9,090 nucleotides of DNA from Escherichia coli (GTDB taxonomy: Bacteria; Pseudomonadota; Gammaproteobacteria; Enterobacterales; Enterobacteriaceae). The stretch lies in NCBI RefSeq assembly GCF_003334355.1, contig NZ_QOWP01000060.1. One strand, written 5' to 3'. This document shows, piece by piece, positions 8,813-9,090 of the stretch. Within the stretch, counting starts at the first letter, position 1. Each line of letters begins with the position of its first letter. A program made the translations under genes and the position numbers. Under the pieces are notes generated by a model. The model ran no database searches. It was not told the DNA's origin and was given only the letters and a program-made list of their open reading frames with translations.

Positions 8813-8822
8813 ATACAATTGC

Positions 8823-8855
8823 CCGATGCGTAAGCTTATAGGGACTACGCATCGG
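8823..8855 (+). terminator. Hairpin downstream of yhhJ (10-bp perfect stem CCGATGCGTA / TACGCATCGG, 13-nt loop); possible intrinsic terminator or REP-related palindrome
   Basis: Arms at 8823-8832 and 8846-8855 are exact reverse complements, 11 nt after the yhhJ stop. The following sequence is T-rich (TGCAATTTATTGAATTTTAG) but has no immediate uninterrupted U tract. The GCCCGATGCG...CTTATAGGGACTAC layout loosely resembles E. coli REP elements. Confidence 0.3.
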
Positions 8856-8882
8856 TGCAATTTATTGAATTTTAGTTGTTTT

Positions 8883-8900
8883 TAGGCCGGATAAGGCGTT
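8883..8900. repeat. REP-like remnant (half-site TAGGCCGGATAAGGCGTT)
   Basis: Matches one arm of the E. coli REP palindrome as I recall it (GCCGGATAAGGCG...). The second arm is missing, so this is a degenerate or truncated element. Confidence 0.35.
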
Positions 8901-8976
8901 TATGAACTGACCCCCAAAACCTGGACAGTTTCAGTTAACCGGCTTTTTGATACTCAGTCCTGTATTCAGGGCAAGA

Positions 8977-9090
8977 TTACGAAAGCCCGCTCCCCGCAAG
9001 GACTGACGCCAGATAGTTTCTGTCCATGGCTGCTTTTCGCATCTTACGTCTTAACCCTGCCTTGAATACCTTATCATTCGTCAAAATATT
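8977..9090 (-). CDS. 3' end of a minus-strand ORF entering from the right edge, convergent with yhhJ; tentatively an H-repeat-associated (ISAs1-family) transposase-like protein
   Basis: The minus strand is open for 37 codons from the window edge to the stop (TAA, complement of 8977-8979), giving ...[37 protein letters not shown]. The other two minus frames stop within about 30 nt. K-12 synteny, from memory, places yhhI (H-repeat protein) convergent to yhhJ. Too little sequence to confirm. Confidence 0.4.

Follow-up and report, generated by a model that had tools for sequence, protein, structure and literature searches.

The DNA analyzed here, a window of 9,090 nucleotides from Escherichia coli, comprises, in this order, the pseudogene yhiL′, the genes yhiJ, yhiY, yhiI, rbbA and yhhJ (plus strand), and the 3′ end of yhhI (minus strand). 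Positions 181 to 9090 are collinear with E. coli K-12 MG1655 at 99.91% identity, and the window as a whole is 99.956% identical to strain PSS-12 (3 mismatches, 1 gap). The stop codon of yhhJ, a TAA, occupies 8810-8812 on the plus strand, and an earlier note, made from the sequence alone, had correctly placed a gap of 164 bp (8813-8976) between it and the stop of a minus-strand open reading frame (ORF). As called mechanically, the ORF of yhhJ begins with a GTG at 7604 and encodes 402 amino acids; the annotated start, at 7688, gives 374 amino acids and overlaps the rbbA stop.

At the left edge of the window, positions 1-180 are the end of an IS1 on the minus strand, whose terminal GGTGATGCTGCC occupies 180-169; the element has inserted into yhiL, the yhhL-side pseudogene, and meets it at 180/181. 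In PSS-12 (L022 8428-9176), IS1 directly follows yhiN, and, with K-12 as the reference, yhiM and ~150 bp at the start of yhiL are absent, a pattern resembling an adjacent deletion promoted by IS1. The pseudogene yhiL is split into the overlapping ORFs 264-1271 and 1247-1639, matching a K-12 pseudogene annotated "frameshifted YhiJ/YhiL family protein." Between this pseudogene and yhiJ, at 1703-1739, lies a perfect 12-bp inverted repeat (GATTGTAGAGGC / GCCTCTACAATC, 13-nt loop), possibly a terminator or a protein site.

The gap downstream of yhhJ ends in ISEc1

Positions 8977-9090 (minus strand) are the last 37 codons plus the stop of yhhI, which encodes an ISAs1-family transposase of 378 amino acids: the translation, given correctly in the earlier note, is identical to the YhhI C terminus in both K-12 and PSS-12, and a 391-bp query over the region found 100% matches to yhhJ plus yhhI in many genomes, K-12 among them. 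The matched yhhI is annotated "ISAs1-like element ISEc1 family transposase." When the sequence is followed rightward in the K-12 and PSS-12 records, the ORF is completed to 378 codons and is succeeded by a pseudogene, yhhH, rhsB, and nikR, so that the synteny given in the earlier note, with yhhI beside RhsB, agrees with the annotation. The same extension bears out its proposal that the peptide is the tail of an ISAs1/H-repeat-type transposase, since the full protein (K-12 ORF) scores 412 bits on the NCBIfam profile NF033564, "ISAs1 family transposase" (cut-off 70), and carries the Pfam domains PF13808 and PF01609. Taken by themselves, the 37 residues within the window match no profile, almost all of them lying past the profile end (residue 344), and because of this the membership of the tail in the ISEc1 family is established through its identity to yhhI. 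The YhhI of the PSS-12 type differs from the K-12 protein by two substitutions, both outside the window. The pseudogene beyond ISEc1 is yrhC, annotated as "lyase" or "HEAT repeat."

The element itself reaches further into the gap than its gene. Its stop-proximal end (ISEc1, or H-rptB; terminus CAGGGCAAGAT) occupies 8967-9090 on the minus strand and runs on past the window, the yhhI stop codon being located 10 bp inside. A BLAST comparison of the K-12 ISEc1 with four other copies gave a common block of exactly 1,291 bp, which is the length of the element, and all five copies, in unrelated flanks, start at the same base with CAGGGCAAGATTACG. Since copies with unrelated flanks share this start, the terminus of ISEc1, beginning with CAGGG, can be fixed at position 8967; in agreement with this, the similarity of further copies, ydcC among them, to the window begins no earlier than ~8967. 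The terminal inverted repeat is imperfect, with 14 of the first 19 bases matching. In every respect the element corresponds to the ISEc1/H-rptB of the K-12 RhsB element (yhhI, b3484), likewise 1,291 bp long with CAGGG termini and a 378-aa DDE transposase, and likewise distal to rhsB-yhhH; over the part within the window the two are identical in sequence. A target-site duplication was not found at this copy, neither between the flanks ...TCCTGTATT and GCCGTTGAC... nor as a common repeat between ACTCAGTCCTGTATT and GCCGTTGACTCGATT, which suggests a rearrangement after insertion and leaves the family membership unaffected.

A BIME-1 element with a register-shifted hairpin follows yhhJ

On the other side of the gap, positions 8821-8902 align column for column and over their full length with five BIME-1 (RIB/RIP) copies at other loci, namely, yaaX-yaaA, yacH-lpdA, ybbP, fbaA, and nlpE. 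BIME-1/RIB/RIP elements were reportedly described by Boccard and Prentki in 1993. The layout common to the copies that we compared is a Z-type unit, an L linker of ~34 nt, and a Y-type unit, which matches the published definition of a BIME-1 as a Z1 unit, an L linker with a site for integration host factor (IHF), and a Y unit (PMC3333891). At yhhJ, the corresponding pieces are a diverged Z-type palindromic unit (REP) at 8821-8848 (plus strand, GCCCGATGCGTAAGCTTATAGGGACTAC), identified by the alignment with the five copies; an L linker at 8849-8882 (plus strand) with the conserved block TGCAAT.T.TTGAAT; and a Y-type unit, opposed to the Z unit, of which the left arm and the loop are present. 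Within the linker, an IHF-like core at 8858-8870 (minus strand, ATTCAATAAATTG) departs from WATCAANNNNTTR by one mismatch and holds the same position as in the other copies. By analogy with other BIME-1 copies, which bind IHF (PMC3333891), this L linker may be expected to bind it too. Thus, the element resembles BIME-1/RIB/RIP in the order and orientation of its units, the conserved L block, the IHF-like core, the single-copy arrangement, and the site at the 3′ end of an operon, and it differs in that its Y unit is cut in the loop. Location at gene 3′ ends is also seen among the copies examined, after yacH/lpdA, ybbP, and fbaA. Such repeats are abundant: a 90-nt BIME query in distant mode found matches at 20 places in the median genome, and in no genome did the best place cover less than 80% of the query.

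The hairpin of this region is the top inverted repeat of the whole 9-kb window. Its arms, CCGATGCGTA (8823-8832) and TACGCATCGG (8846-8855), form a perfect 10-bp stem around a 13-nt loop, and six further pairs beyond one bulged T (8817-8822 with 8857-8862) bring it to 16 bp in total, so that the structure spans 8817-8862 (plus strand). Folded as RNA, a 58-nt stretch reaches -24.7 kcal/mol (z = -5.3), with none of 200 shuffled sequences as good, and a 76-nt stretch reaches -26 kcal/mol (z = -3.8). The earlier note had listed a hairpin at 8823-8855 as a feature of its own; the perfect 10-bp stem stands, and its independence does not, given that the hairpin is built from two pieces of the BIME-1, namely, its Z unit and the first part of its L linker. 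Specifically, the 5′ arm of the Z unit pairs with the CTAC tail of the unit and the beginning of the linker, in a register shifted relative to the canonical fold of a palindromic unit (PU). The 10-bp stem is specific to this allele. Compared with BIME-1, the Z unit has changed from TATCGGGCC to TATAGGGAC and has lost its own stem, the longer, register-shifted stem taking its place, whereas the canonical BIME-1 copies and the allele at locus L005, where another island occupies the site, fold the palindromic unit on itself. The stem energy is -24.7 kcal/mol for the K-12-type allele versus -16 kcal/mol for that of L005. Alignment of these Z-unit alleles (window 8821-8862 against L005 6179-6218) gives 6 to 7 differences per ~31 positions; a cluster of this kind could have arisen by templated (quasi-palindrome) mutation or by one repeat converting another.

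A strong stem that starts 5 bp past a stop codon and is followed by T-rich sequence also invites another interpretation, in which the hairpin serves yhhJ as a Rho-independent terminator of its own and has nothing to do with repeats; the folding energy and z score of the hairpin would fit that role. We consider this improbable, if worth keeping in mind. Along its whole length, the hairpin can be aligned with a repeat (Z unit plus L linker) found about 20 times per genome; a scan for consensus terminators made no call at this position (13-nt loop and an interrupted T run, TTTATTGAATTTT); the L005 allele lacks the stem; and in ~40% of genomes, by the rough estimate given below, the hairpin is absent and hicAB directly follows the stop codon. 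Terminator and BIME are not mutually exclusive descriptions, as BIMEs can end or stabilize transcripts. Folding of the minus strand for a second hairpin or terminator serving yhhI gave only the BIME hairpin and weak pairing inside the IS1397 remnant described in the next section, and an Rfam scan of 8700-9090 returned a single sub-threshold chance match (ES036, 17 bits against a gathering score of 37.6).

The palindrome is altered in strain ET450 (L021 3150-3230, equivalent to window 8810-8865), in which ~44 bp across it are missing, apparently by deletion between the direct repeats CAATT at 8816-8820 and 8858-8862; ET450 is also without one base of the yhhJ stop, resulting in a longer ORF. 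Either slippage stimulated by the palindrome produced this deletion or the assembly is in error here.

The Y unit is interrupted by the end of an IS1397

The remaining part of the BIME-1 is a Y-type unit reduced to its left arm, TAGGCCGGATAAGGCG, and the loop TTTA (8883-8902, plus strand), the right arm, CGCCGCATCCGGC, being missing. The arm at 8883-8898 is a 16/16 match with 0.00 expected by chance, so that the half REP-like sequence noticed in the earlier note at 8883-8900 is an exact and significant one. A search of the whole window with 3 mismatches allowed found no full Y-type unit, whereas at loci L004 and L005, which hold another island at the site, the whole unit GTAGGCCGGATAAGGCGTCACGCCGCATCCGGC occupies the same position.

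Immediately after the loop, the sequence becomes that of IS1397, a member of the IS3 family. Positions 8903-8967 (minus strand) are the terminal 65 bp of this element, from the end downstream of orfB, and start with TGAACTG; they account for most of the spacer that the earlier note had treated as anonymous. They are identical to positions 1-65 of a 1,432-bp IS1397 (L003) at 63 of the 65 positions (E = 1.4e-26) and keep the last 10 codons of OrfB, EYRTEYQKAG*, with the stop at 8935-8937, identical to those of the full copy. In line with this assignment, the places that 8879-8967 resembles at 94-96% bear the annotation "IS3-like element IS1397 family transposase." The same terminus is carried by IS1397 copies in all four other loci examined and is therefore not an ordinary BIME linker. 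Base 8967 is common to the IS1397 remnant and ISEc1.

Full copies show how an IS1397 sits in such a repeat. The copies in CFT073 (1,427 bp) and TUM13754 (1,432 bp) each lie between two halves of a Y unit, in the layout ...TAGGCCGGATAAGGCGTT / TGAACTGAACCCC ... GGGGTGCAGTTCA / (G)TTCACGCCGCATCCGGC, and the insertion points correspond: GGCGTTTA/TGAACTG in the window, GGCGTT/TGAAC in CFT073, and GGCGTTTAC/TGAAC in TUM13754. Passages of two published accounts, and titles that these cite, describe palindromic units as the target of IS1397 (PMC1525189, PMC3333891), which is specific for their loops. Only half of the REP is present at yhhJ because IS1397 inserted in the loop of the Y unit, after GGCGTTTA. 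One might instead suppose that the half REP arose by random decay or deletion, with no IS1397 insertion at all, and it is true that one side of the putative insertion is left, so that no target duplication can be demonstrated. Nevertheless, the break falls in the loop right after GGCGTTTA, the IS1397 terminus TGAACTG stands immediately next to it, the same arrangement recurs in complete IS1397 insertions at three other loci, and the left arm is intact at 16 of 16 positions, which together make such decay highly improbable. A further IS1397 insertion in a BIME-1 is seen in E2348/69 (L023 3500-6400), downstream of gldA, where the element is itself interrupted by ISEc21 of the IS110 family.

The stretch at 8903-8967 is a remnant rather than an element. 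It shares with IS1397 the terminal sequence (63/65), the insertion point in the Y-unit loop, the TGAAC terminal repeat, and the C-terminal OrfB codons; in contrast to an intact copy, it retains 65 of 1,432 bp and has no transposase, second end, or visible duplication, that is, neither orfA and orfB with their frameshift nor the 3- to 4-bp duplication. The rest of the element was found neither in 20 kb of the K-12 locus nor past the far end of ISEc1. When a chimeric query was used to look for a complete IS1397 at the yhhJ site, none of the best-ranked matches included the yhhJ end, the best being gldA-yijF.

The junction is widespread and old, and the site is polymorphic

Of 5,426 complete E. 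coli genomes, 2,113 (~39%) have the combination of the BIME with half a Y unit, the IS1397 scar, and the ISEc1 end. Carriers include ~4% diverged lineages (~96% identity) with an internal deletion in ISEc1 and a different Rhs content, and the junction GTATT/CAGGGCAAG is identical in those diverged lineages; it is therefore a single old event. By a rough estimate from evenly spaced sampling of the ranking, ~18% of the genomes have a whole BIME and an island encoding a phosphotransferase system (PTS), and, by the same sampling and equally roughly, ~40% diverge exactly at the yhhJ stop, where hicAB follows, with or without the PTS island. In the genomes with the PTS/aldolase island, yhhJ is followed by the same hairpin region and linker and then by the whole Y unit GTAGGCCGGATAAGGCGTCACGCCGCATCCGGC. 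The end of yhhJ in these genomes is the uninterrupted site.

The slot between yhhJ and nikR is thus a polymorphic island site (L001, L004-L007, L013, L019-L020) that holds at least three occupants: RhsB with ISEc1, the PTS/aldolase sugar island, and hicAB. The arrangements observed were RhsB with yhhH and ISEc1; Rhs tips with yibA, sel1, and immunity genes; the sugar island, a 6-kb stretch with PTS, FGGY-kinase, class II aldolase, and GntR genes; hicAB; and hicAB plus the sugar island. The idea that the yrhC pseudogene is what remains of a class II aldolase gene like that in the PTS island was rejected, as neither blastn nor tblastx found similarity to the island.

These frequencies also bear on the remark in the earlier note that the core operon is bracketed by mobile DNA. 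The statement is literally true, IS ends being present at both edges of the window, and from this one could go on to propose that the yhiJ-yhhJ block is mobile as a composite unit, with IS1 as its left end and ISEc1 as its right. The bracketing has no mechanistic meaning, and we regard a composite unit as next to impossible: IS1 and ISEc1 belong to different, unrelated families, the IS1 is strain-specific, its exact junction being intact in 1 of the 5,426 genomes as opposed to 2,113 for the ISEc1 junction, and all the genomes inspected, whether or not they carry one of these ISs, have the operon at the same place, between yhiM/yhiN and nikR. In 16 further genomes, an IS1 is located within a few hundred bp of the yhiL junction, and yhiL may be an IS1 hot spot.

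Discussion

With the anatomy of the gap, its boundaries, the family membership of its pieces, and their distribution in the population directly observed, an order of events can be proposed for the yhhJ-yhhI gap. We put the probability at roughly 90% that it is a BIME-1 whose Y-unit loop was hit by an IS1397 that was later truncated and joined to ISEc1. In this order, the BIME-1 would have come first, at the 3′ end of the yhiI-rbbA-yhhJ operon, and IS1397 would then have entered the loop of its Y unit, right after GGCGTTTA. A later event would have cost the Y unit its right arm and IS1397 everything except its last 65 bp, and would have set the break precisely against CAGGG, the terminus of the ISEc1/H-rptB that closes the RhsB element. 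Given that no target duplication was found and that there is no IS1397 beyond the other end of ISEc1, this join is not a simple surviving insertion. It may have been mediated by transposase, either because ISEc1 inserted into IS1397 and one side was then lost or through an IS-promoted adjacent deletion. As to function, the hairpin of Z unit and linker in the yhhJ mRNA might act as a 3′-end stabilizer or a weak terminator, as judged from the BIME-1 family.

Alternatively, the ISEc1/IS1397 join might date from the import of the Rhs region by recombination, homologous or illegitimate, with no part played by the ISEc1 transposase. The absent target duplication would be explained in this way, transposition of H-rpt elements is reported never to have been observed (PMC3032704), and the alternative islands in the yhhJ-nikR slot suggest replacement via recombination in the flanks. 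What speaks against recombination is the position of the break, exactly at the IS terminus common to all copies, which is the signature of an end made by a transposase and not of a random breakpoint. We therefore judge it the less likely origin of the join, while granting it a real share of the probability, and favor the transposase-mediated event.

How much of this is new? The whole gap consists of known kinds of repeated and mobile DNA and represents ordinary genome scarring; our analysis adds to this the scar left by IS1397 and the identification of the repeat as a BIME-1. In the K-12 and PSS-12 records examined, the gap carries no feature annotation. The first 50 kb of the NC_000913.3 record have no REP or RIP features, even at the yaaX-yaaA BIME, so their absence at yhhJ is uninformative. 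An inventory of the complete and partial ISs of K-12 contains no IS1397 (PMC3032704). It is tempting to speculate that the 65-bp IS1397 end fused to the ISEc1 terminus is an unrecorded fossil in K-12-type genomes, for which we see somewhat less than an even chance; ISfinder or EcoCyc may already list it.

For the K-12 chromosome, these results mean that every base of the intergenic region at NC_000913.3 3625515-3625678 (coordinates by arithmetic) is explained, with the BIME-1 at about 3625589-3625670, the IS1397 remnant at about 3625524-3625588, and the ISEc1 end at about 3625524. The gap provides a worked example of an IS insertion targeted to a REP and subsequently truncated, and carries little weight beyond annotation. 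As a fossil of this kind, the fused IS1397 end would show that the lineage leading to K-12 at one time carried IS1397 and that a cut of the transposase type had linked an end of ISEc1/H-rpt to foreign DNA, the latter constituting indirect evidence of past H-rpt mobility, which is reported never to have been seen in experiments.
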